From Candidatus Gottesmanbacteria bacterium RIFCSPHIGHO2_01_FULL_46_14 (lineage in GTDB: Bacteria > Patescibacteriota > Microgenomatia > UBA10105 > UBA927), in assembly GCA_001780895.1 (NCBI GenBank), contig MFJJ01000010.1, positions 898 to 64,897 of the forward strand: a stretch of DNA of 64,000 nt. Reading direction: 5' to 3'. The notes beneath the pieces were generated by a model that saw nothing but the letters and a program-made list of their open reading frames with translations, did not search any database and was not told the origin of the DNA. Below are positions 1-19,825 of this stretch, piece after piece. Both the position numbers and the translations under genes were made by a program. Positions within the stretch are counted from its first letter, which is position 1; each line of letters opens with the position of its first letter.

Positions 1-461
1 TCGGCGTTTGGGGCCATAGTATGGGCGCGATGCTTGCTATTATCTGGGGAAGCAAACATCCGGAGCTTAAAGCGATTTGTTCCGTATCTCCTCCGGTTCA
101 GACGGGAACTACGGATTGGCTTAGGCCACTCCTTAACGAATGGAAAAAAACCGGATGGTTTACGAAAGTTAGCACGAGCGGACGTGGGGAGAGTCGGGTG
201 CCGTGGGCCTTTATGGAAGATGCGGGGAAGTATAATACGTTGGACTATGTGGAAGATGTGCGAAGTCCGCTCATGATTGTCCTTGGGCTCGCCGAAGATA
301 CCGTGCCGCCCGAACATACGAGAGAAATATTTCGGAAAGCTCACGAGCCGAAGGCACTCGTGGAAATAGAAGGCATGAGTCACGATTACAAAAAAGTTCC
401 GAAGCACCTTCGGTTAGTGAATAGCAAGGTAATTCCATTTTTTGAGAAGTATCTGAAGTAA
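1..461 (+). CDS. alpha/beta-fold hydrolase, C-terminal part (gene starts upstream of the window)
   Basis: The frame is open from nt 3 and a GHSMG nucleophile-elbow motif is encoded at nt ~12-26. ORF-track 21..461 is the in-window portion. Confidence 0.5.
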   Translation, partial: GVWGHSMGAMLAIIWGSKHPELKAICSVSPPVQTGTTDWLRPLLNEWKKTGWFTKVSTSGRGESRVPWAFMEDAGKYNTLDYVEDVRSPLMIVLGLAEDTVPPEHTREIFRKAHEPKALVEIEGMSHDYKKVPKHLRLVNSKVIPFFEKYLK

Positions 462-480
462 CTCACGAGAAATCCGATTT

Positions 481-918
481 ATGAAACCGATGATTCACCA
501 GGGGACTATCAACGACATATCTACATATATTGCACTTCAGCGTCGAGATGGATTTTCTCATCAATACTATCTAACACCAGAAAGATTAAAACGTTTAATT
601 GATCGCGGTGAGCTATTCTTTCTGGCAATTCCAGAAGGAGCGCCAGTAGGTTTTGCGTCTGTCGACTGTGAGATTCGTTCACAAGCACATTTTTTGTCTG
701 TTGATAAAAAATACGCGAGGAGAGGAATTGGAAGCATGCTTATGAAAGCGCTTATGAATGAAGCAAAAAAACAAGGGCATACTCGGTTATGTTCGCATGT
801 AGAAGCAAGCTCAACGAAAGAAGTTTTTCTACAGAAACAAGGTTTTATTCAGGTGGGATACTACAAAAATAGATACGGAAATGGTGTAGACGCATCGATC
901 TGGGAAATCGCGTTATGA
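481..918 (+). CDS. GNAT family N-acetyltransferase
   Basis: 145 aa with an acetyl-CoA binding motif (RRGIGSMLMKAL...QGF), the typical GNAT core. Confidence 0.6.
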   Translation: MKPMIHQGTINDISTYIALQRRDGFSHQYYLTPERLKRLIDRGELFFLAIPEGAPVGFASVDCEIRSQAHFLSVDKKYARRGIGSMLMKALMNEAKKQGHTRLCSHVEASSTKEVFLQKQGFIQVGYYKNRYGNGVDASIWEIAL

Positions 919-1066
919 TTGTTTTAATTTCGTCATCATCAACGTCCCGCGCATGATGCGGGATGACTTTTTAGAGTTGGTGGCGGAGTGGTTTCAAAAA
1001 ATTCCATGAGCCTATTTTTGCAACGGCTTATTTGATTATGGTAGACTTATAGTGGAGAAGCCAATT

Positions 1067-1300
1067 ATGAACTATCAAAAACGTATCACAATCAATCCTA
1101 AAGTCATGGTTGGTAAGCCGGTGGTCGCCGGAACGCGCATCACAGTTGAGCAGGTACTCACACTTCTTTCTCAAGGGGTGACCGCGGAAGAGCTTGCTTC
1201 GGAAAAATACTATCCGCAGCTTACCAAAGCAGACGTATATGCTGCCGTTGCGTACGCCAAAGATCGCGTAGAAGATGAACGCGTCTATCCTCTGGGATGA
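1067..1300 (+). CDS. DUF433 domain protein (putative antitoxin)
   Basis: Sequence KPVVAGTRITVEQVL...G(V)TAEEL matches the DUF433 signature. ATG at 1067 is preceded by GGAGA (ORF track begins at GTG 1052). A 4-bp ATGA overlap couples it to the downstream PIN-like gene. Confidence 0.6.
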   Translation: MNYQKRITINPKVMVGKPVVAGTRITVEQVLTLLSQGVTAEELASEKYYPQLTKADVYAAVAYAKDRVEDERVYPLG

Positions 1301-1650
1301 AATTCCTAACGGACGAAAATATAGGACTTGAGGTTGTTGCATTTCTTCGAAAGAAGGGTCATGACGTTGGTTCTATTACAGAAATTTCTACCGGTGTATC
1401 CGACGTGATGGTCTTGGCGAAAGCCGTCGACGAAAAGCGGATTCTCATAACAGCGGATACAGATTTCGGCGAACTTGTCTACCACGCCGGAAAGCGACAC
1501 GCGGGCATTGTTTTACTTCGGCTTGATGATGAACGCAACGCAAATAAAATTCGTGTACTCGGAGAACTTCTTGAGAAATATGCCGATGAACTCGTTGGTA
1601 CCTTTGTTATAGTCACAGAAACCAGCGTGCGCATTCGCCGAATGTCGTAG
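1297..1650 (+). CDS. DUF5615 family PIN-like nuclease (putative toxin partner of DUF433)
   Basis: 117 aa with conserved acidic residues (LTDEN...ITADTDFGEL) in a PIN-like fold. The DUF433/DUF5615 gene pairing is established. Confidence 0.55.
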   Translation: MKFLTDENIGLEVVAFLRKKGHDVGSITEISTGVSDVMVLAKAVDEKRILITADTDFGELVYHAGKRHAGIVLLRLDDERNANKIRVLGELLEKYADELVGTFVIVTETSVRIRRMS

Positions 1651-1653
1651 GCT

Positions 1654-2652
1654 ATGAAACGATTTCCGATCGTCCGAGCACACGGGTCGCATTATGAGGT
1701 GGGTGTTGCCATTGGGAAAATGATGCGCCAACCTATCATAAATTTACTTACTCGGGAAAAAGCGAGTCTTGGAGAAAAATTTGTTTACTATGTGGACATG
1801 CTCCCGTCGTTTATCGAAATTACGAAGCGTTACTTCCCGCAATATATGGATGAAGTGAGAGGTATCGCGGATGGCGCGGGAGTGGATTTTCAAACATTGT
1901 TTTCTACAAACTGTCGTGAGGTTGTAGACTATTCGGGTTCTACAAGTACAGCAGACCATTGCACAATAGTTACTATTCCTCAGAGCAATCAATATATCGT
2001 GGGTCACAATGAGGATTGGGATGCCGAGTCGATTGAGATTCTATACATTTTTGACGCGGTTATAGACGGCGTACATATTTTCGGACTTAATTATGGAGAT
2101 AGCGTCATGGGAGATTCTATCTCCGTGACGAGCCATGGCCTCATACAGGCAGTCAACGATCTACAGCATCAAGACGCTCAACTCGGTGTTCCTAAAAAGT
2201 TTATCGCCCGGGCAATACTTGATTGTAAAACGCTTGAGGAGGCGGAGGACATCATGAAAAAAGTTCCGCGCGCGGCAGGATTTAATCACGTGCTTGCTCA
2301 GGGACAACGATTATGGAATATAGAGTCTTCTGCCAAAGAATACGTCATTGAGAAAGTCGAATTGCAAAAGTACGTCCATACCAATCATTACGTGACAGAG
2401 TTGAAGCGGATAGACAAAGGAAATCAGGAGTCGGAGAAGCGGTATGCGAAGGTTAAAGAACGACTTAGTGACGTCAATTCCATAAAAGATATGAAAGAAC
2501 TTTTAAGTGATCAAACAGATCCCCGCATTTGTCGAGAGGGGACCATCGGATCAGTAATCTTTGACATGCCCAACAAAGTCGCCCACATCGCCTACGGCCA
2601 ACCGACGCCGCAGGCGTATGTGGAGTATTCACTTGAGCACGTGTTGGAATGA
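1654..2652 (+). CDS. peptidase C45 family Ntn-hydrolase (acyl-CoA:6-APA acyltransferase-like)
   Basis: The N-terminal RAHGSHYEVGVAIG motif is typical of C45. Length is 332 aa with an internal Cys (ADHCTIV). Confidence 0.5.
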   Translation: MKRFPIVRAHGSHYEVGVAIGKMMRQPIINLLTREKASLGEKFVYYVDMLPSFIEITKRYFPQYMDEVRGIADGAGVDFQTLFSTNCREVVDYSGSTSTADHCTIVTIPQSNQYIVGHNEDWDAESIEILYIFDAVIDGVHIFGLNYGDSVMGDSISVTSHGLIQAVNDLQHQDAQLGVPKKFIARAILDCKTLEEAEDIMKKVPRAAGFNHVLAQGQRLWNIESSAKEYVIEKVELQKYVHTNHYVTELKRIDKGNQESEKRYAKVKERLSDVNSIKDMKELLSDQTDPRICREGTIGSVIFDMPNKVAHIAYGQPTPQAYVEYSLEHVLE

Positions 2653-2661
2653 GAGGATGAT

Positions 2662-2706
2662 ATGAAGTCGGAAGGGAGAGTCGCCATCGTCACCGGTTCT
2701 TTGTGA
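2662..2706 (+). pseudogene. 14-codon remnant of a short-chain dehydrogenase 5' end (MKSEGRVAIVTGS)
   Basis: It encodes the Rossmann GXXXGXG start of an SDR and has a good SD sequence (GAGAGGA) placed as if in operon with the C45 gene. A stop follows after 14 codons. An intact SDR paralogue starts at 3505. Confidence 0.45.
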
Positions 2707-2773
2707 GGGATTGGGTATAGCCGGATGGTAGTTTTATTGACAAAGTGTATAGATTATAGTACTATTAACATAT

Positions 2774-3085
2774 ATGTTAATTGATACGAACCAGATTATC
2801 AGTCTTTCCGATCTCCGATTCCGGCTCGGCAGGATGCTTGCCGAAGTGGAAGAAGGGAACGTTCTTCTCGTAGCAAATAAGGGAGATATTAAAGCCGCTT
2901 TTGTTCCCATGACTTTTTTGGAACAGAACGCCGGCAATTCCGAGGAAATGCGTATGAAAGCAAAGGCACTCCAACATGGTTTCGCCGCGGATATGGCAGG
3001 AAAAAAAACTGTTTGGAATAGCACCGTCTTGATCCGAACCCAACGAAACAAACGCGTTGCAAAAATGAACGAACTGATAAAATAG
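2774..3085 (+). CDS. Phd/YefM-like antitoxin
   Basis: 103 aa with an N-terminal pattern (ISLSDLRFRLGRMLAEVEEGNVLLVANKG) typical of Phd/YefM. It sits immediately upstream of a PIN toxin. Confidence 0.5.
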   Translation: MLIDTNQIISLSDLRFRLGRMLAEVEEGNVLLVANKGDIKAAFVPMTFLEQNAGNSEEMRMKAKALQHGFAADMAGKKTVWNSTVLIRTQRNKRVAKMNELIK

Positions 3086-3087
3086 CT

Positions 3088-3495
3088 ATGGAGCACATCG
3101 TGCTTGATGCATCGGTCGTGGTGAAGTGGTTTAAGAAGAAAAATGAGCAACGTACCAGCCAGGCAGACGTATTACTTCAGAATCTTCTTGACGGGACCGT
3201 ACGCGTTTCGATTCCTACGCTTCTTTTTACGGAACTTGTCAGCATTGCGGCCATTGATCGAAGCGTTTCGGAAGAACACTGGCAGGAGGCACTTGTATTT
3301 CTTTTTTCCCTTTCCTGGCATGTGTATCCACCGGACCAATTTTTCGTCAAAGATACGTATCGGTTAGCCAAAGGATTAGGACTGAGCGCGTATGATGCTA
3401 CGTACCTTGCTGTTGCCAAGCGCTGTAGCGCGGTGGTGGTGACGGAGGATAAAGAGCTTCTTGCCAAAGGCGGAAATTTGGTCCGAGCATTGTAG
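3088..3495 (+). CDS. vapC: VapC-type PIN domain toxin
   Basis: Begins LDASVVVKWF, has a conserved Asp (YDATYL), is 135 aa and follows the antitoxin with a 2-bp gap. Confidence 0.6.
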   Translation: MEHIVLDASVVVKWFKKKNEQRTSQADVLLQNLLDGTVRVSIPTLLFTELVSIAAIDRSVSEEHWQEALVFLFSLSWHVYPPDQFFVKDTYRLAKGLGLSAYDATYLAVAKRCSAVVVTEDKELLAKGGNLVRAL

Positions 3496-3504
3496 AAAAA
3501 GTCT

Positions 3505-4245
3505 ATGGAACTTAAAGATAAAGTTGTTCTCATTACAGGTTCTTCAAGTGGCATAGGCAAAGCCGCCGCCCTCAAATTTGCGCAAGAAAAAGCAAAAGTA
3601 GTTGTTCATTACAAAACTAATAAGACTGGGGCCCAACTTACAGTAGACGAAATGAAAAATTGGGGCGCTGAGGTTATCGCAGTTCAGGCCGATGTAGTGA
3701 AGCCTCACGAGGTCAAAAGACTATTTTCCGAGGTACTTAAAGCGTTTGGAACCTTAGACGTTCTCATTAATAATGCAGGATTAGCCAAGCCAAAGCCCTT
3801 TTTGGAAATCACCAGAGATGACCTGGCGGAGGAGTTTGATAAGAATTTCTTTAGCATGGTTTACTCCTGTCAGGAAGCTGCAAGAATCATGCAAAAAAAA
3901 GATTCCGGAAAAATTATCAATGTCTCTTCGATTTGTGGATTAACAGGCTGTACAAGCATACTCACTTTTACATCTGCGCGGTCAGCAGTAACGGGTTTTA
4001 CAAAGGCACTCGCCAAAATTCTAGCACCAAACATAATGGTTAATGCAGTAGCGCCAGGATTTACCCTTACCCGCTTTTGGGATAAAATGACAGACAAAGA
4101 GGTTAAAGAATTGCTTGACTCAACACTGTCTAAAAAGTGGGTTACCGCAGAAGAAATCGCAGATACATTTATTTATTTGACTAAAAACGATTCTGTGACT
4201 GGTCAAGTAATCGTTGTAGATGGAGGCTACACTACAAATATATGA
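3505..4245 (+). CDS. SDR family oxidoreductase (FabG-like)
   Basis: ITGSSSGIGKAAA Rossmann motif, NNAG motif, and the catalytic S...Y...K spacing. Confidence 0.75.
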   Translation: MELKDKVVLITGSSSGIGKAAALKFAQEKAKVVVHYKTNKTGAQLTVDEMKNWGAEVIAVQADVVKPHEVKRLFSEVLKAFGTLDVLINNAGLAKPKPFLEITRDDLAEEFDKNFFSMVYSCQEAARIMQKKDSGKIINVSSICGLTGCTSILTFTSARSAVTGFTKALAKILAPNIMVNAVAPGFTLTRFWDKMTDKEVKELLDSTLSKKWVTAEEIADTFIYLTKNDSVTGQVIVVDGGYTTNI

Positions 4246-4712
4246 ATACAAAAAACAAAAACATCATTAAGGATATTCTTCAAGCAACCCCCTTGCTGTC
4301 TATGGCTTCTATTACAAAAGACGGGAAGAGTTGGATTTGCACTGCCTTTTATGCATATGATGATAAACTGAAATTGTATTTTCTAACTCCGCCGACGACA
4401 CAACACAGTAAAAATTTAGAGAAAAATGCTTCAGTAGCTATTTCAGTTTTTGATACTCATCAAAACCCTGATGACAAGAAGCGGGGGCTACAGATATTTG
4501 GTGCATGTCATAAAGCAGCAGGTAATGAAATAGAGAAGGGGCTACGCATATATGGCAAACGATTTGTGGATTTCGGAAAGAAAATCCTTTCGCCAGAAGA
4601 TATTGAGAAATCAAAAATGCATTCGCGCTTCTATGTTGTAGTCCCGCAAAAGATAAAAATATTTGATGAATTAGTTTTCGGTGAAGAGATATGGGTAACC
4701 GTGGTTATTTGA
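4242..4712 (+). CDS. pyridoxamine 5'-phosphate oxidase-like FMN-binding split-barrel protein
   Basis: 156 aa. ATGA overlap with the upstream SDR gene. Pattern resembles general stress protein 26 / PNPOx. Confidence 0.4.
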   Translation: MNTKNKNIIKDILQATPLLSMASITKDGKSWICTAFYAYDDKLKLYFLTPPTTQHSKNLEKNASVAISVFDTHQNPDDKKRGLQIFGACHKAAGNEIEKGLRIYGKRFVDFGKKILSPEDIEKSKMHSRFYVVVPQKIKIFDELVFGEEIWVTVVI

Positions 4713-5343
4713 TCTCCGGCAAGACTTCGAGGGGGTTGACGGGGGTGCCGTCCTGGTAGATTTCGAGGTGAAGGTGGTTGCCGGTGGACCAGCCGGTGGA
4801 GCCTACCTCGCCGAGCTTCGTTTTCTTATCTACAGTTTGACCAGGACTCACATCGATTTTGGACATATGGCCATAAAGCGACTTCATGCCGTCGTCGTGT
4901 TCGACAAGCACATGGTTGCCGTAGCCCCAGTTTGAGAAAATAGTCCATTCCACCCAGCCGTCAGCGATTGGGTACACAGGAGTGCCTTTGGGATTGGTGA
5001 GATCAACACCCGGGTGGCCGGTTGAAAATATTGTGGTTAGGCCAAATCGGGTGAATGGCCACTGAAACTTGGTGTCTGTCGGGATGATCTCAATAATCGT
5101 CTCTTCTGTGGCCTTGCTCACTTCGAGATTGGCGACGAAATCTGTTGCAGTGGGCACTAAAACCGCGGAAAAGACAGCCACTCCAGACAAATACACTCCT
5201 ATGATCTGGGGGAGCTTGGTTGCCTCAATCTTTTTGCGTAAAATGAGGCTAATTCGATTGCTGCCTCGATAGGGGACCAGCAGCCAGTAAATAATCTTTT
5301 TCGTAGAAGCCGATAGTATATAATTTTGCTTCTTTCTTGTCAA
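4705..5343 (-). CDS. M23 family metallopeptidase (LytM-like), membrane anchored
   Basis: HPGVDL...GNHLHLE motifs (HxxxD and HxH). N-terminal TM helix. The apparent start is TTG at 5343 and there is no upstream ATG. Confidence 0.65.
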   Translation of the reverse strand: MTRKKQNYILSASTKKIIYWLLVPYRGSNRISLILRKKIEATKLPQIIGVYLSGVAVFSAVLVPTATDFVANLEVSKATEETIIEIIPTDTKFQWPFTRFGLTTIFSTGHPGVDLTNPKGTPVYPIADGWVEWTIFSNWGYGNHVLVEHDDGMKSLYGHMSKIDVSPGQTVDKKTKLGEVGSTGWSTGNHLHLEIYQDGTPVNPLEVLPEIK

Positions 5344-5360
5344 ATTGAGGTGCAGGCGCT

Positions 5361-6266
5361 ATGATGAGGAGATCTATGCGCAGAAAGATAGTATTTCTGG
5401 TCGTTATTCTTCTTCTGATCGGTGGTGTTATAGGACTAATCCGATTTTTTTCAGGCCGAAGCGGAGCGACCGGTGAGCTTCGTGTGGATAGTCAGCCTAC
5501 AGTGAGTATATTTTTGGATAATAGACATATTGGTCGAAGCCCCTATAAAGACAAAGTTGCCTCCGGTGAATATACCATCAAGCTTACTCCGGAATCTGCG
5601 GTCGATTCTCCGGCAAGTTGGCAGGGACAAATCACTATTGGACCCAATTTATTAACGTATGTAAATGCAACACTTTCCGACTCCGAGCTTACCAGTGCAG
5701 TCGATGTTCTTTGGCTCACTAAAACGTCAGGCAGAGCCTCCGAAGTTTCCGTTACCACCAACCCCGATGGCGCAACACTTCTTATTGATAACGAAACGAA
5801 AGGAGTAACACCCCTTGCTATCTCCGATCTTTCCGCCGGAGACCATACGCTCACGGTTACGTCTCCGGGATTTGCTCCCCGAACGCTCAAAATAAAAGCA
5901 ACGGCCGGGTATCGCCTCATCGTGACGGTCAAACTTGCCCTTTCTGGCGAGCCGATGCCAACGCCGACTGAGGAAGCGACACCTTCGCCAACACTTAAAA
6001 CAACACCTAAAGCGACCCCAACCAAGATAGCAACAAGTTCAGCCACCATGCCTGATCCGACTAAACCCTTCGTGACGATCAAAGACACACCCACCGGATT
6101 TTTGCGCGTCCGGATGGAGCCATCGACGGCCGCTACTGAAGCTGCACAAGTCAAGCCTGGTGAAAAATATCACATCGAGGATGAGCAGAGCGGGTGGTAT
6201 CAGATAAAATACAGCGGAACCAATGAGGGTTGGATCTCCGGCCAGTACGCCACAAAGACTGAGTAA
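5361..6266 (+). CDS. PEGA domain protein with C-terminal SH3b-like domain, membrane anchored
   Basis: N-terminal TM helix. PEGA-like block (TNPDGATLLIDNETKGVTPL...GDHTLTV). Pro/Thr-rich linker. C-terminal GWYQIKY...GWISGQY. Confidence 0.5.
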   Translation: MMRRSMRRKIVFLVVILLLIGGVIGLIRFFSGRSGATGELRVDSQPTVSIFLDNRHIGRSPYKDKVASGEYTIKLTPESAVDSPASWQGQITIGPNLLTYVNATLSDSELTSAVDVLWLTKTSGRASEVSVTTNPDGATLLIDNETKGVTPLAISDLSAGDHTLTVTSPGFAPRTLKIKATAGYRLIVTVKLALSGEPMPTPTEEATPSPTLKTTPKATPTKIATSSATMPDPTKPFVTIKDTPTGFLRVRMEPSTAATEAAQVKPGEKYHIEDEQSGWYQIKYSGTNEGWISGQYATKTE

Positions 6267-6271
6267 TATAT

Positions 6272-6679
6272 ATGGGTTATGAAAATGTGTTGCGCGTGGA
6301 GGGTTTTCTGAAGGATCGTATTGGCTGGTGTAGCGGAAGTGGTTATTCGAGTTTCGGGAGGATGGTTATAGCGTATCGCGACGAAGTACCTCGTGATGAC
6401 GTTTTAACAGGGGAGGAGCTTGAAAAAGCTTGCGCATCTTGTCCAGTGGGGAAAGAGAGAATACCTGGTTTGATTTGCGGTGGGATGAAATATGTCAATC
6501 GGATGCAAAGTCAAATGGTGGCTGAGGTGGATGTTTCAGATAAAGCTCAGTTACCGGAAGGCGCTGAAATATTTTGTGGCTTGGATAACGCGAGGTTACA
6601 ATCGATGAAGGAAGCACCGACCATAGCAGAAGTAGCAGCTCAATATACCGGCGATATGCCTCTCGTGCCGTATAATTGA
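6272..6679 (+). CDS. hypothetical protein
   Basis: 135 aa ORF with no recognisable family. Confidence 0.3.
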   Translation: MGYENVLRVEGFLKDRIGWCSGSGYSSFGRMVIAYRDEVPRDDVLTGEELEKACASCPVGKERIPGLICGGMKYVNRMQSQMVAEVDVSDKAQLPEGAEIFCGLDNARLQSMKEAPTIAEVAAQYTGDMPLVPYN

Positions 6680-6693
6680 TGGAGCGCAAATTG

Positions 6694-6750
6694 CTACCCT
6701 CCTATCCCATACACGACCACCAGCACGCTTCCCACCCAAAGTTCCTTCAG
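6694..6750 (-). pseudogene. duplicated 3'-end fragment of the UbiA-family prenyltransferase gene (encodes ...LWVGSVLVVVYGIGG*)
   Basis: 19 codons ending in TAG. The last 15 aa are identical to the C-terminus of the intact gene at 7384..8322, with about 10 synonymous nt differences. Confidence 0.6.
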
Positions 6751-7112
6751 TTCATCCGACGAAATACGATTTCAAACTCTTTACGAAATCCTTCAAACGT
6801 TATGGTGGCTTTTTGGAAAAGATCCGCTTGTCCGAGGATACAATGGTAGGGCGATATTCCTTCCACGATATTCAATGCGAGGGAAAACGTACTCCCATTT
6901 ATTTCTGCCTCCGCGCGATCAAACCGGTGAGAACGAAATTGTCCGCTTAACGTAAAGCCGATAGATGCCGGAATACTCTCCCATGGTATGCTGAGCGATT
7001 CTGCGATAGTCGTTGAAATCACTGCTCCTGCTGCGCCAGAGTCAACCAATGCAAATGTCGGAAATTCTGTTTGTTGGTGGCGAAATGTCACGGGAACTAT
7101 CGGTGCCAGCAC
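6747..7112 (-). CDS. retropepsin-like aspartic protease (clan AA)
   Basis: LVDSGAAGAVIS active-site motif, hydrophobic-hydrophobic-D-S/T-G-A. Length 121 aa. Confidence 0.55.
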   Translation of the reverse strand: MLAPIVPVTFRHQQTEFPTFALVDSGAAGAVISTTIAESLSIPWESIPASIGFTLSGQFRSHRFDRAEAEINGSTFSLALNIVEGISPYHCILGQADLFQKATITFEGFRKEFEIVFRRMN

Positions 7113-7383
7113 GACTCTGTTCTTGATGCTCGGAAGCGGACTGTACCTGTATTGTATGAAGCCTATCCGATGAAGTTGCCGTACGTTTTTCCTGCCGGAA
7201 AAAAGTATACCTTTTCTTTTTGTTTCTGTACCTTCTCTTTGAGTGTTTTTAGGTTTCTTCCGGCAAACACGACGGAGCGAAAGTCAGACGAAATTGCTAC
7301 CCATCCGGACGTATGGCCCCGCAGTAGTTTGACAAAATTGATCGACTTCTTTTTCATACAACAGTAGTATACTACTTTATGCT

Positions 7384-8322
7384 TCATCCTCCAATGCCGT
7401 AGACCACCACCAGCACACTCCCCACCCAGAGGATGATTGTGGCTAGAAGGGGAAGATCGCTGGTTAAAATTTTCTCCGGTGATTCACCTTTCCCTTCGTA
7501 AATAAGCTGCATATACCGCATGATGCCATAGAGAACAAATGGGATTGTCAACATCATCCATTTTCGCCCGGGAATATCCGGTGCAAAATCTCCGTAGTTG
7601 CGAAAAATAATACCTTCTCCTTGAGGTTGGGCTAAAAACGTAAAAAATGCGTAGGTAATAAACGTCGAGTTTGCAAACATTGCCGTATAGGTATCAAGGA
7701 GTTTTTCTGAGTAATGGGAAAGCGCCATACGCGTATCGCGGGGAACAACGCCTTCGTAGCTATCGATAAGGGTAAGCTCTGCTCTGCGTTTTCCGATAGC
7801 AAGAAACAAGGCAAGCGACAAAGCCGCCAGAGCGAGCCAAATGGAAATGTGAAATCCCGTGGCGGCTTCACCGGCATAGACCCGGAGGATATATGCGGTC
7901 GTAATGGTAAGAATATCAATAATACTGTACTGTTTTAAGATAAGCGTATAGGCATACTCAAGAAACAAAAATGCGACTGCAAAAAGAAAAAACGTCGGAT
8001 TGGTGAGACTTGCAATATAGAGCCCTGTGAAGGCAAAAAGAATCGAAACGAGGACTGCCACAGGGATAGGGAGTTTGCCGCTTGCGACCGGACGAAATTT
8101 TTTGAAGGGATGTTTTCGGTCTCGGGGAGCATCGAGGACGTCGTTAAAGAGATAGTTTGATGAGGAGAGTAAACAAAATGCAATAAACGCCCAGAGATTT
8201 TGTATAAATGGGGCGGTTTGAAACAGTTGCCCAGTAAAGAGAATCGGCGTGAAGATCGCGATATTTTTTAACCACTGTCGGGGTCGTGCGGTTTTGAAAA
8301 TTGCCAAAAGTACTTGAGCCAT
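7384..8322 (-). CDS. UbiA family prenyltransferase, decaprenyl-phosphate phosphoribosyltransferase-like
   Basis: NDVLDAPRDRKHP...RPVASGKL motif (NDxxDxxxD) and multiple TM helices. The start was trimmed to MAQVLL (8322) because the ORF-track N-terminal extension overlaps the upstream gene. Confidence 0.55.
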   Translation of the reverse strand: MAQVLLAIFKTARPRQWLKNIAIFTPILFTGQLFQTAPFIQNLWAFIAFCLLSSSNYLFNDVLDAPRDRKHPFKKFRPVASGKLPIPVAVLVSILFAFTGLYIASLTNPTFFLFAVAFLFLEYAYTLILKQYSIIDILTITTAYILRVYAGEAATGFHISIWLALAALSLALFLAIGKRRAELTLIDSYEGVVPRDTRMALSHYSEKLLDTYTAMFANSTFITYAFFTFLAQPQGEGIIFRNYGDFAPDIPGRKWMMLTIPFVLYGIMRYMQLIYEGKGESPEKILTSDLPLLATIILWVGSVLVVVYGIGG

Positions 8323-9395
8323 AGCAGGAAGCCGCCAATGACCACACCGACAAGAAGTAAGGTAAACACCTTCTGTCGACTCGTGACAGCCAAGGCGATT
8401 GCACCAAGTATAGCCGACACACCCCAGTAAAACAAGGCAACACGGCGTCGGCCCCATCCCAGATCCAAGAGTCGGTGGTGGAGGTGACCACGGTCGGCCC
8501 AAACTGGAGACTTTCCGTGGCCTATTCGTCGTATGAGCGTATAGAGGGCGTCAATTGTTGGAATGCCGAGAACCAGGAGTGCGGTGCCCAGTTTCCCGTA
8601 GGAAAGAATACCCAACAGTCCGAGCATCAGCCCGGCGATCGTTTTGCCGCCGTGTCCCGGCATGATTTTTTGCGGATAGACGTTCCATGGTAAAAAACCC
8701 AGGAACGCTCCGGCGACGATAAAGGCTAAAATCGTGACCGGAAGTTGAGACGGGTCGACGGCACTATAGCGCAGGGACAAGAGTCCCAAAACAATGCCAG
8801 AGACCACGACAAATCCCGGCATCTGTCCGTCGACTCCGGCTGACCAGCCGACGATGTGCATCGTCCACATAAGCCAGACGAATGCAAATAGGTCTGCCCA
8901 GACCAAAATGGAATGTTTTCCAAAAAAATCAAACGAGAGGCGCCAGGTTTGAAGATCGATTACTCCTCCGGTTATTGGATTGGTAACAAACGGAATACCG
9001 GCGCCCACTCCTATCACAACAATAACGGCAAGTATCCCAATACCAAGGCGAATATAGGGGTTTATATCACGTTTGTCGTCTATTATTCCCGTGATCGTCA
9101 GGAGTGCAAGTGCTACGATTATTCCGACCGTGAGTTTTGTAACGGGTAGATAAAGAAGCATTGCGATGGCGATTGCCGCAAATAAGGCAAGCCCTCCCGC
9201 GCGGGGGACTGTTCCGTGATGGGTATGGGCGGGATGATAGCGATTTTTTGGGTTATCGAGGAGTTTCCAGTTGCGGGCAAGATCAATAACCCATGGCGTT
9301 ACCCCAAAACTAATGAGACCTGCAACAATTCCGGCAAGAGCGAAATTCATGAGAGCGTTACGTAACCAGAGAGAGAATTTGTACGATTGAAACAA
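8268..9395 (-). CDS. glycosyltransferase family 4 polyprenyl-phosphate phosphosugar transferase (MraY/WecA family)
   Basis: 375 aa with about 10 TM helices and Asp-rich cytoplasmic loops (GIIDDKRD). Architecture is typical of MraY/WecA. Confidence 0.6.
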   Translation of the reverse strand: MFQSYKFSLWLRNALMNFALAGIVAGLISFGVTPWVIDLARNWKLLDNPKNRYHPAHTHHGTVPRAGGLALFAAIAIAMLLYLPVTKLTVGIIVALALLTITGIIDDKRDINPYIRLGIGILAVIVVIGVGAGIPFVTNPITGGVIDLQTWRLSFDFFGKHSILVWADLFAFVWLMWTMHIVGWSAGVDGQMPGFVVVSGIVLGLLSLRYSAVDPSQLPVTILAFIVAGAFLGFLPWNVYPQKIMPGHGGKTIAGLMLGLLGILSYGKLGTALLVLGIPTIDALYTLIRRIGHGKSPVWADRGHLHHRLLDLGWGRRRVALFYWGVSAILGAIALAVTSRQKVFTLLLVGVVIGGFLLWLKYFWQFSKPHDPDSG

Positions 9396-18681: not shown

Positions 18682-18695
18682 CGATTCCGTTGGAT

Positions 18696-18725
18696 ATGTT
18701 ACTATGTTTCGAAACAAGATAACAT
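18696..18725. repeat. degenerate copy of the 30-bp palindrome ATGTTACTATGTTTCGAAACATAGTAACAT
   Basis: ATGTTACTATGTTTCGAAACAAGATAACAT has about 3 mismatches in the right arm. It sits 3 nt beyond the stop of the P-loop kinase gene. Confidence 0.7.
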
Positions 18726-18728
18726 GAA

Positions 18729-19244
18729 TCATCGGAAGTATTCGTGTATCCACGATTCAATCGACAATGATCCATCATAGGAAATGACATGCTCATCAGG
18801 TGTTGGAGGTTGAAAGTTATCTGCAACCTCGGTAAAATCTTCGTCTCGAACATCATATCGTTCTTTGGTTTGTCTATTGCTTTGCCAACGTTGTCTTGCG
18901 ACTGACTCGGGAATGTTTACATAAATAACTATTGAATCAGTTCCGACTTTTTCAGCTATAGCACGGAGTTTGTCTCTTTGTTCTCGCGTAAAATTAGCCG
19001 TATCGTTGATAACTGTTCTACCCTCACGTAAACGTAGTTCTGTTCGTTCATAAGAAATTCGGTATGTTTCTTTCCAATCCTCATTGGAAATTTCATCATT
19101 GCTGAGTTCTCTTAAACCTCGTTCACTATTGATTTCATCCAAATCTACGCGAACCCACCCGAAGTGCTTAACGAGTTCGTTGGCAAGAGTTGTCTTTCCT
19201 GCAAATGGTAAGCCGCAAAATATAAGAAGCACAGTCTCGTTCAT
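18729..19244 (-). CDS. P-loop kinase / AAA-type ATP-binding protein (zeta-toxin / polynucleotide-kinase-like fold)
   Basis: Walker A motif GLPFAGKTTLANEL. 171 aa with no other domain. Bracketed by 30-bp palindromes. Confidence 0.5.
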   Translation of the reverse strand: MNETVLLIFCGLPFAGKTTLANELVKHFGWVRVDLDEINSERGLRELSNDEISNEDWKETYRISYERTELRLREGRTVINDTANFTREQRDKLRAIAEKVGTDSIVIYVNIPESVARQRWQSNRQTKERYDVRDEDFTEVADNFQPPTPDEHVISYDGSLSIESWIHEYFR

Positions 19245-19250
19245 GAGATT

Positions 19251-19280
19251 ATGTTACTATGTTTCGAAACATAGTAACAT
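19251..19280. repeat. 30-bp perfect palindrome ATGTTACTATGTTTC|GAAACATAGTAACAT (putative operator, shared by divergent genes)
   Basis: Perfect 15+15 inverted repeat, 7 nt upstream of the kinase start and 17 nt upstream of the TrpR-like gene start. Confidence 0.8.
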
Positions 19281-19296
19281 AAGGCTGTAGGATTGT

Positions 19297-19737
19297 ATGA
19301 CGCAAATATCAAAATATCCTCTACGAAAAGAAATTGAGAATCGGATGCTTGAGGTTTTTCTTGATAGCATAGGGATGGTAAAAACCCGAGAACACGTCCA
19401 GAAACTCATTGATGATCTCTTCTCTCCTACCGAGCGCGTAATGCTCGCAAAACGCCTGTCTATAGCACTGTTGCTTCTTAAGAAATATGATCAGAGGACG
19501 GTAGCAAGAATACTCAACGTAAGCTTAGGAACGGTAAATAAAGTGAGCTTAGCGCTTCAGAAAGGAAATGGAGGGTATGAATTGGTCGTTAATTCTATAG
19601 TTCGACAGGAGAAATTTCACGCGTTTTTAGAGAAAATCGATGAAACACTCGTAGATATCGTTACCACGGGTCATTCTCTTCCTAATTGGCGTCGCGTGCG
19701 GTGGGAAACGAAAATCCGCAATCGAAAGCCTTACTAA
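19297..19737 (+). CDS. TrpR/YerC/YecD-like DNA-binding protein
   Basis: SPTERVMLAKRLSIALLL...QRTVARILNVSLGTVNKVS, a TrpR-like HTH of the YerC/YecD family. 146 aa. Confidence 0.55.
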   Translation: MTQISKYPLRKEIENRMLEVFLDSIGMVKTREHVQKLIDDLFSPTERVMLAKRLSIALLLLKKYDQRTVARILNVSLGTVNKVSLALQKGNGGYELVVNSIVRQEKFHAFLEKIDETLVDIVTTGHSLPNWRRVRWETKIRNRKPY

Positions 19738-19740
19738 CAC

Positions 19741-19770
19741 ATGTTACTATGTTTCGAAACATAGTAACAT
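19741..19770. repeat. 30-bp perfect palindrome, third copy
   Basis: Identical to 19251..19280. Starts 4 nt after the stop of the TrpR-like gene. Confidence 0.8.
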
Positions 19771-19825
19771 AAAAATGTAAAGCATAGGAAGATAAGTTTT
19801 TTTTGATGAATGCTATACTTAAGAT

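Follow-up and report, generated by a model that had tools for sequence, protein, structure and literature searches.

A short-chain dehydrogenase gene relic beside a Phd-like/VapC cassette at a variable locus of Candidatus Gottesmanbacteria

Organization of the Locus

The subject of this analysis is a Phd-like/VapC toxin-antitoxin cassette, together with the short open reading frame (ORF) in front of it, located between a C45-family gene and a short-chain dehydrogenase (SDR) gene in a 64-kb stretch of Candidatus Gottesmanbacteria DNA (the window, to which all coordinates refer unless another locus is named). The C45-family acyltransferase/hydrolase gene (1654–2652, plus strand; Pfam AAT, 2e-28; NCBIfam C45_proenzyme, 6e-58) forms the conserved left anchor of an interval that is variable in relatives. 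It is followed on the same strand by an ORF of 14 codons and a TGA stop (2662–2706; MKSEGRVAIVTGSL*), served by a Shine-Dalgarno-like GAGAGGA (2651–2657, as read from the sequence) 5 nucleotides (nt) upstream of the ATG at 2662. The ribosome-binding site and the ORF are present as described in the original prediction, whose translation had dropped the final Leu. The cassette comprises a promoter-like TTGACA-17-TACTAT (2737–2765), an 18-nt perfect palindrome, ATTAACATATATGTTAAT (2764–2781; an inverted repeat of 100% identity by self-BLAST), the gene for a 103-residue Phd-like antitoxin (2774–3085) and the gene for a 135-residue VapC-type PIN toxin (3088–3495). A junction consisting of a 9-nt spacer and approximately the first 22 nt of the SDR ORF (3496–3526) leads into the intact SDR gene (3505–4245; Pfam adh_short, 8e-51), the stop of which overlaps a PNPOx-like gene by 4 nt (4242–4712; Pfam PNPOx_N, 1.3e-8), all on the plus strand. 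The conserved right anchor is an M23 peptidase gene on the minus strand (4705–5343; Pfam Peptidase_M23, 6.6e-31), whose stop overlaps that of the PNPOx-like gene, and a PEGA-domain gene (5361–6266, plus strand) follows.

The window matches Candidatus Gottesmanbacteria contigs from groundwater metagenomes (e.g. GCA_001779345.1 MFJW01000002.1). The loci retrieved for comparison were numbered L001–L076, and those related to the window were found through C45 orthologues in representative genomes and metagenomes, at 84–91% and 57–61% identity. An identical C45 protein is encoded on 10 contigs (L001–L010), in all of which the segment 1654–4712 is base-for-base identical.

The SDR-start Relic

The 14-codon ORF is the beginning of an SDR gene. 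The SDR homology of the MKSEGRVAIVTGS… ORF extends beyond its TGA to about 2715–2722, and translation past the stop gives GIGYS, which completes the Rossmann motif TGxxxGIG (…TGSL*GIG). The motif [VILA][VILAT][VILFM][VILF]TG...G[IL]G occurs twice in the six frames of the 64 kb, in the stub and in the intact SDR, and on average 0.0 times across 300 Markov-simulated windows. Alignment with the 5' ends of relatives' SDR genes, a check proposed with the original prediction, returned a match beyond chance: the first 66 nt of the L025 SDR find their best match in the window at 2679–2715 (86.5% over 37 nt, E = 1.8e-4, blastn-short), whereas the first 66 nt of the window's own SDR, searched against the window with the same program, gave no match to the stub. 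Likewise, the stub is identical to the L025 SDR at 42 of 54 nt (31 of 36 in the core) and to the intact SDR of the window at 31 of 54 (22 of 36 in the core). The second check, comparison of the C45-SDR junction among relatives, placed a syntenic SDR at the position of the stub; after C45, the stub begins exactly where the SDR starts in L014, L024, and L026. Because of this shared position and the better match to the L025/L014 type, the stub is identified as the start of the syntenic SDR. The proposal of a genuine SDR 5' relic is thus supported by motif statistics, blastn and synteny. The segment 2662–2722 is the dead relic of the first ∼55–64 nt of an SDR that once directly followed C45, with homology to the syntenic 5' end certain for nt 1–54 and ambiguous up to about nt 64.

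The stop codon itself can be traced in the alignment. TTG-TGA at 2701–2706 lies opposite TCG-CGA (Ser-Arg) in L025 and L014, and opposite TCG-CGC or TCG-CGT in other relatives, so the stop arose by two C→T changes. Recoding of TGA (genetic code 25) was considered for the in-frame stop and rejected, as the neighboring genes, C45 included, end in TGA.

Were the stub unrelated to SDRs, it might be a short ORF that arose by chance or a leader peptide with a function, readings in favor of which stand the strong ribosome-binding site and a sequence unchanged in all ten contigs; allelic variation in the stub was sought across the 10 contigs with identical C45 and none was found. This invariance merely reflects a single population, however, and the motif expectation of 0.0 per 64 kb, the L025 match, the homology running past the stop codon, and the syntenic position together refute such an origin, the probability of which is negligible.

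The Toxin-Antitoxin Cassette

The promoter-like TTGACA/TACTAT that had been reported ahead of the Phd/VapC genes was found with 17-nt spacing and 10 of 12 matches. The antitoxin gene comes first and the toxin gene follows after a 2-nt gap on the same strand, an arrangement that is kept as a unit in L072–L076. VapC is recognized by PF01850 at 44.9 bits, against a cut-off of 23.6 bits (E = 2.1e-11), and the acidic residues Asp7, Glu49, Asp103, and Asp121 are present in the translation. The antitoxin gives a weak, N-terminal match to the Phd/YefM family (PhdYeFM_antitox, PF02604) of 18.4 bits (E = 0.0019), below the gathering cut-off of 29.8 bits. No NCBIfam match was obtained for the antitoxin and no PDB sequence match, either with the single protein or with a four-sequence profile, and its single-sequence AlphaFold model is poor (pLDDT 44), with an order of secondary structure elements compatible with Phd/YefM. 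The protein is therefore described here as only a probable member of the Phd/YefM class.

The palindrome ATTAACATATATGTTAAT spans the start codon of the antitoxin gene and carries one or two changes in L072, L075, and L076; it is a probable operator. Relative to these three loci, the ratio of nonsynonymous to synonymous substitution rates (dN/dS) is 0.09–0.17 for the antitoxin and 0.08–0.12 for VapC, values of about 0.1 that show purifying selection on a functional cassette. By analogy with the VapBC family, the cassette would work as a standard type II toxin-antitoxin module, in which the antitoxin, alone or in complex with the toxin, would act at the palindrome over the start codon to repress the TTGACA/TACTAT promoter, and VapC would cleave RNA once the antitoxin is lost. 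No terminator-like site was found between VapC and the SDR, and the cassette promoter therefore probably also transcribes SDR-PNPOx, which it would now drive by read-through.

A parallel is seen in the ribbon-helix-helix (RHH)-VapC cassettes of two relatives, where the stretch from the TTGACA box to the antitoxin start holds a perfect palindrome particular to each cassette: TAGTACAATTGTACTA in L024 (3968–3983) and one of 34 nt in L028 (4306–4339).

Copies of the Cassette in Other Lineages

Homologues of VapC with 87–93% identity occur in L072/L073/L074, L075, and L076, each with the same 103-residue antitoxin. When the cassette was aligned across five loci, the flanks were seen to diverge immediately upstream of TTGACA, and conservation runs from this box through both genes and an 8–10-nt spacer into ∼22 nt of the next gene, so that the junction at 3496–3526 is kept between the copies. 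The next gene is an SDR start in every copy (L072–L076). This bears out the idea of a discrete cassette with its own promoter, as conservation between copies begins at the TTGACA itself. The upstream neighbor differs from place to place: C45 in the window, one lineage of aldehyde dehydrogenase in L072, an aldehyde dehydrogenase of the L025 type in L076, and dCMP deaminase in L075.

The cassette is far less diverged than its surroundings. Between the window and L072, dS is 0.56–0.86 for the cassette and saturated for C45 and PEGA, where dN is 0.21–0.27. Between L072 and L075, the cassette has a dS of 0.31–0.46, and the adjacent SDR and the Dabb gene reach 1.6 and 1.7, respectively. It follows that the cassette moves horizontally, and even independently of the body of the SDR. 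Judged from these rates it is demonstrably younger than its flanks, and it has moved between lineages while continuing to end at SDR starts.

In L072/L073/L074 the SDR start is present on both sides of the cassette, upstream as a 60-nt relic and downstream as the complete 5' end of an SDR of the L025 type; the two copies are identical at 46 of 60 nt. The gene-end duplicate flanking a cassette, as pictured in the original prediction, is thus seen directly at these loci. The SDR downstream of the cassette there (L072 7418–7729) is the product of an in-frame internal deletion, a 103-residue protein in which …ATALLFAKE is joined to LAPHIRVNAV…; damage to the SDR of this locus has therefore occurred more than once and has taken different forms in different lineages.

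The cassette of L076 begins 22 nt past the stop of an aldehyde dehydrogenase whose C terminus is of the L025 type, and in L025 an SDR starts 14 nt past that same stop. This pair looks like a filled and an empty site. L025 and L028 were also considered as exact empty sites for L072 and were rejected, since the aldehyde dehydrogenase of L072 belongs to a different lineage (dN about 0.54).

The Downstream SDR

The intact SDR of the window contains the cofactor-binding motif TGxxxGxG, as TGSSSGIG, and is 42% identical to the syntenic-type SDR of L014, its closest homologues being 64–74% identical. Residues 155–159 are FTSAR, so that the classical catalytic YxxxK is absent, and the syntenic type has YSCAK. 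In an alignment of 121 SDR sequences (120 homologues and L014), 82 have YxxxK, 25 FxxxR, 9 FxxxK, and 5 YxxxR, with FxxxR also present in the closest relatives of the intact SDR. In two of three other contexts examined, this SDR is paired with an overlapping PNPOx-like gene, the neighborhoods of these pairs being unrelated. L017–L019 have the same 4-nt SDR-PNPOx overlap and L020 has an overlapping 153-residue ORF without a Pfam match on record; in L022 a PNPOx-like gene (weak match) lies on the opposite strand to the SDR. Neither a C45 gene nor a toxin-antitoxin module was found near the pairs of L017–L019 and L020. The SDR-PNPOx segment of the window has a G+C content of 37–42%, compared with ∼45% for its neighbors.

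The 42% identity, FTSAR in place of YSCAK, the pairing with PNPOx elsewhere, and the closer match of the stub to L025/L014 indicate that the resident SDR was lost and replaced. The intact SDR accordingly represents a different subfamily and a non-orthologous replacement of the lost gene, not a repaired gene. Insertion with replacement of a gene end had been proposed for this site; insertion of the cassette at an SDR start, leaving a relic, stands, and the part that does not is the identity of the intact SDR, which is not the displaced gene (31 of 54 nt, compared with 42 of 54 for L025).

In a rival version, the cassette would have entered the present downstream SDR and either brought along or duplicated the 5' end of that gene, so that stub and intact SDR would derive from a single gene. 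Such an architecture does exist, in the relic, cassette, and L025-type SDR with full 5' end of L072/L073/L074, and the spacer and ∼22 nt of the intact SDR in the window match the cassette-linked SDR starts. Indeed, the 5' end of the L072 SDR matches 3509–3526 of the window at 94% over 18 nt (E = 0.011). Nevertheless, after ∼22 nt of SDR ORF the window switches to the PNPOx-paired type of SDR, with its FxxxR and 42% identity to the syntenic type, and the stub, which the start of its own SDR does not retrieve by blastn-short, resembles the L025 gene instead. A single split gene is unlikely in the window for these reasons.

Contents of the C45-M23/PEGA Interval

The contents of the interval were compared across L011, L014, L015, L023–L028, and the window. 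C45…M23-PEGA synteny holds in L011, L014, and L023–L026. L014 (57% C45 identity) has the order C45→SDR→M23→PEGA, with the SDR ATG 4 nt past the C45 stop. In L011 and L023, C45 is followed by an aminotransferase and other genes; in L024 by an SDR-start relic (MRLQNKVAIITGSSRGIGRATA*), an RHH-VapC pair and M23; in L025 and L028 by an aldehyde dehydrogenase and then an SDR; in L026 by an internally deleted SDR (64 nt from its 5' end joined to ∼55 nt from its 3' end), a 122-residue ORF and M23; and in L027 by a DUF433/DUF5615 pair, an aminotransferase and then an SDR. In L015 there is nothing between the anchors. Altogether eight different contents were found between C45 and M23/PEGA, and the interval differs in each relative, including those with 84–91% identity in C45. 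The interval is, to all appearance, a recombination hotspot in Gottesmanbacteria. Empty sites are also represented, with nothing inserted in L014 and an intact SDR without the cassette in L025, L027, and L028; these relatives are 57–87% identical in C45 and are not near-identical strains.

The relic ends at nt 54–64 from the SDR ATG in the window, at ∼60 in L072, at 64 in L026, and at 66 in L024. All four breakpoints fall in the G-rich stretch GGGATCGGGCGGGCGACGG, just past the GIG codons. In the C45 tree, the clade of L024 and L026 also contains L025 and L027, whose SDRs are intact (89–96% identity), and the window lies outside this group at 85–87%. This placement implies that at least some of the truncations are separate events, or that the relic travels with cassettes.

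Four breakpoints within 12 nt, and two unrelated toxin-antitoxin cassettes (that of the window and L072, and that of L024) joined there, each starting at a TTGACA box, would be expected if GGGATCGGGCGGGCGACGG were the attachment site of a recombinase encoded elsewhere, in the manner of an integron or an integrative element. Among the called genes within ±8 kb, however, Pfam detected no recombinase family (integrase, transposase, or resolvase), and a search of 2500–4800 for terminal or attC-like repeats of the cassette, inverted or direct, returned only short repeats at chance level, with no inverted repeats or attC-like structure at the cassette ends. Other relics of the neighborhood, described below, involve quite different sequences (the 3' ends of UbiA and of a hydrolase), and L026 has the same breakpoint with a deletion in place of an insertion. 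Site-specific integration is accordingly regarded as very improbable.

The deletion in L026 bears on a further alternative, in which there was no insertion and a deletion in a tandem SDR-cassette-SDR ancestor fused the first SDR at nt ∼60 to the region upstream of the cassette. The internal deletion of the same SDR in L026 has its left breakpoint at nt 64, nearly that of the window, and two SDR genes are found in the neighborhoods of L028 and L075. On the other hand, a full SDR followed by the cassette and another SDR is seen in no relative, the same truncation would have to arise in, or travel with the cassette to, L072, whose flanks are very distant, and L076 and L025 look like a filled and an empty site. 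Loss from a tandem array is therefore improbable as the origin of the stub.

Gene-end Relics and Neighboring Genes

The SDR stub is not the only gene-end relic in this region. The 3' end of UbiA (minus strand; 7388–7431) is duplicated at 6698–6741 over 44 nt at 82% identity, as the original prediction had noted in placing it under the same theme. The two copies flank a DUF5678-like gene (7387–7163) and a retropepsin-like gene (7112–6747), a pair that also occurs in L011/L023 and L075. Upstream of C45, the plus-strand segment ∼943–1008 between the GNAT acetyltransferase gene and the DUF433/DUF5615 pair encodes INVPRMMRDDFLELVAEWFQKIP*, a 3'-end relic of the α/β-hydrolase found immediately ahead of C45 in relatives (…ITDVPRPMREEFLVLVRDWFAKTI*); the present hydrolase of the window (21–461, plus strand) is a different paralogue, like that of L012. 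Relics or duplicates of the hydrolase 3' end in relatives span 35–62 nt at 79–86% identity. They occur in L013 (327–381/1047–1102) after a DUF433/DUF5615 pair (56 nt, 79%), in L028 (∼4200–4285) immediately 5' of the TTGACA in the RHH-VapC cassette, in L075 (4164–4225/5607–5668) around a two-gene insert (62 nt, 85%), and in L027 (3520–3554/4589–4623) after C45 (35 nt, 83%). Gene-end relics beside small cassettes are therefore a general pattern in this neighborhood.

The GNAT acetyltransferase gene occupies 481–918 on the plus strand. The DUF433/DUF5615 genes (1067–1650, plus strand) constitute a second toxin-antitoxin pair, with a DUF433 antitoxin-like and a DUF5615/PIN_10 toxin-like member and a 3-nt gap to the C45 start. 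Downstream of C45 there is also such a pair in L027 and a DUF433-like gene in L012, and upstream of it a DUF5615 gene in L013. In several lineages, movable toxin-antitoxin cassettes bracket C45.

Beyond M23, the contigs of the window's own population (L001–L010) diverge despite being identical from C45 to PNPOx, and their gene content is variable: L003 has a 168-residue minus-strand ORF in place of the PEGA gene, and L004 is without the 135-residue gene. Farther along the window, a 30–34-nt palindrome, ATGTTACTATGTTTCGAAACATAGTAACAT, is present in three copies, two of them perfect (18695–18730, 19249–19282, and 19741–19772), which bracket a kinase-like gene (18729–19244, minus strand) and a 146-residue ORF (19297–19737) that looks TrpR/YerC-like by eye. 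The L013 homologue of this ORF (4744–5196) is likewise bracketed by palindromic repeats. These palindromes may be operators or cassette boundaries. A search of 1–9000 with Rfam at E ≤ 1 returned no RNA family, so none explains the intergenic segment.

Proposed History of the Locus

The reading that we prefer, at a probability of about 0.7, is that the stub is the relic of a resident SDR, that a mobile toxin-antitoxin cassette inserted at the 5' end of this gene, and that a foreign SDR-PNPOx unit replaced the remainder, all within a recombination hotspot. The order of events, like the recombination mechanism and the regulation suggested above, is something we infer. The ancestral order would have been C45→SDR→M23 peptidase→PEGA, as still seen in L014. 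A promoter-bearing Phd-like/VapC cassette of ∼0.77 kb would have entered by recombination where the resident SDR begins, leaving the stub upstream. Simultaneously or later, the SDR body would have been replaced by a foreign unit of lower G+C content, the FxxxR SDR with its PNPOx-like gene, with a left junction in the first ∼22 nt of the SDR ORF and a right junction at the M23 stop. The stub would then have decayed, with TCG-CGA becoming TTG-TGA.

Several observations weigh against this history. The window has no right-hand copy of the supposed duplication as such: its likeness to the SDR starts joined to the cassette covers only ∼22 nt, and since MELKDKVV also occurs as a native N terminus in the PNPOx-paired subfamily, the crossover point is only a proposed one. 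Upstream of the cassette in L075 and L076, no relic is recognizable. The relics of the window and L072 are identical at 35 of 54 nt, which fits either a shared ancient event followed by neutral decay (at the dS of the cassette) or independent events, so that the order and number of events given here are tentative. The stub is invariant across all window-type contigs, which represent one population, so that its neutrality cannot be read from variation. The Phd assignment of the antitoxin scores below the Pfam threshold. Finally, the arrangement without a toxin-antitoxin module that the original prediction had named as a refutation is seen in part among the relatives: in L026 a decayed SDR lies beside C45 with no such module, and SDR decay at this spot is consequently not tied exclusively to toxin-antitoxin insertion.

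As to mechanism, we favor homology-anchored illegitimate recombination, or homologous recombination through the conserved SDR start, either of which would produce a long target duplication. Three routes would be possible, which the scars do not tell apart: illegitimate joining within the G-rich segment of the SDR, a double crossover through two short arms, and Campbell-type integration of a circle carrying a gene end.

A broader scheme can be put forward only tentatively, as one that we consider possible yet rather doubtful: small promoter-bearing cassettes lacking their own recombinase, represented here by toxin-antitoxin pairs and the DUF5678-like/retropepsin-like pair, might spread between Gottesmanbacteria genomes by carrying, or landing on, short conserved gene ends (35–62 nt) as homology arms. 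If so, a diverged duplicate of a gene end would be left behind at every hop and could permit precise excision as well, and cassettes would land preferentially on the G-rich Rossmann-motif segment of SDR genes. Insertion with long target duplication would then extend from restriction-modification units to toxin-antitoxin modules, giving a concrete and testable route for gene flux in candidate phyla radiation (CPR) bacteria.

Comparison with Known Systems

The cassette resembles VapBC-type modules with a Phd/YefM-class antitoxin in having the antitoxin first, a 2-nt gap, a PIN toxin with four acidic residues, a promoter-like site with a palindrome, and two small genes under strong purifying selection. 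It differs from them in its 103-residue antitoxin, for which the Phd/YefM score stays under the Pfam threshold and neither NCBIfam nor the PDB yielded a sequence match. To our knowledge, the movement of chromosomal toxin-antitoxin cassettes without transposases or integrases is poorly documented, and we know of little on gene exchange in the reduced genomes of CPR bacteria. The locus is of value in this regard as a small, well bounded natural experiment on recombinase-free cassette mobility, in that it keeps the scars of its junctions and the site is found filled, empty, or in part decayed among relatives. It also serves as a warning to annotators that short “ORFs” beside such cassettes are gene-end relics.

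Prophages and islands can replace a gene end on integration, as e14 does in icd and islands do in the 3' ends of tRNA genes. As in those cases, an insert here would supply a substitute gene end while the displaced original persists as a relic; unlike them, neither an element-encoded integrase nor a defined att core was found. An integron cassette or an integrase-mediated island is likewise not indicated, with no integrase among the neighbors and no att-type repeats in 2500–4800.

In homology-facilitated illegitimate recombination, reportedly described by de Vries and Wackernagel in 2002 and by Prudhomme et al. in 2002, homology anchors the incoming DNA at one of its ends and an illegitimate joint forms at the other, in a GC-rich site; sequence beside the anchor may be duplicated or deleted. 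The joints at the present locus similarly fall where the SDR start is richest in G+C, with the difference that the process is deduced here from scars alone. A literature search combining toxin-antitoxin systems with this type of recombination found nothing specific.

The minimal mobile element is a site model of 2007, as described in PMC3787668. The interval shares with that model its conserved flanks (C45 on the left, M23/PEGA on the right), the different whole-gene cassettes in close relatives, and an exchange that would be best explained by homologous recombination in the flanks. In contrast to the model, some of the crossovers here would lie inside a resident gene and leave relics, and Gottesmanbacteria are not known to be naturally transformable.

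Insertion with long target duplication has been described for restriction-modification units (Nobusato et al. 2000; Furuta, Abe and Kobayashi 2010, PMC2853133; summary by Mruk and Kobayashi, PMC3874152), which lack mobility genes and occur mostly in naturally competent bacteria (PMC2853133, PMC3874152). By the criteria of Furuta et al. 2010, such a unit is shorter than 20 kb, has no mobility genes, and is flanked by direct repeats of more than 30 bp that align to one empty-site target. The window cassette, at ∼0.77 kb with two genes and no recombinase Pfam family within ±8 kb, agrees in size and in the lack of mobility genes. Flanking repeats of more than 30 bp, aligning to SDR starts, are both present in L072/L073/L074; the window keeps only the left copy (2662–2722), and on its right-hand side just ∼22 nt agree with the SDR starts joined to the cassette. 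The likeness to the restriction-modification insertions lies in an addiction-type unit without transposase or integrase between direct repeats of more than 30 bp, a target that is single-copy in empty-site relatives, and a target that often overlaps a gene end. It is closest for the Phd-like/VapC cassette of L072 (60 nt) and for the DUF5678-like/retropepsin-like pair of the window (44 nt of the UbiA 3' end). The differences are that the cargo is a type II toxin-antitoxin pair, that the host is a CPR bacterium, and that the right-hand copy in the window would have been overwritten by a different SDR. In addition, the repeats here are 77–86% identical, compared with 93–100% for the cases considered from Furuta et al. 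(PMC2853133), and the events are therefore old or one copy came from the donor.

With a conventional toxin-antitoxin module, and a mode of insertion already published for restriction-modification units, the locus is not a new molecular system; it is an informative evolutionary scar, for which the best analogue would be insertion with long target duplication in a hotspot resembling a minimal mobile element.

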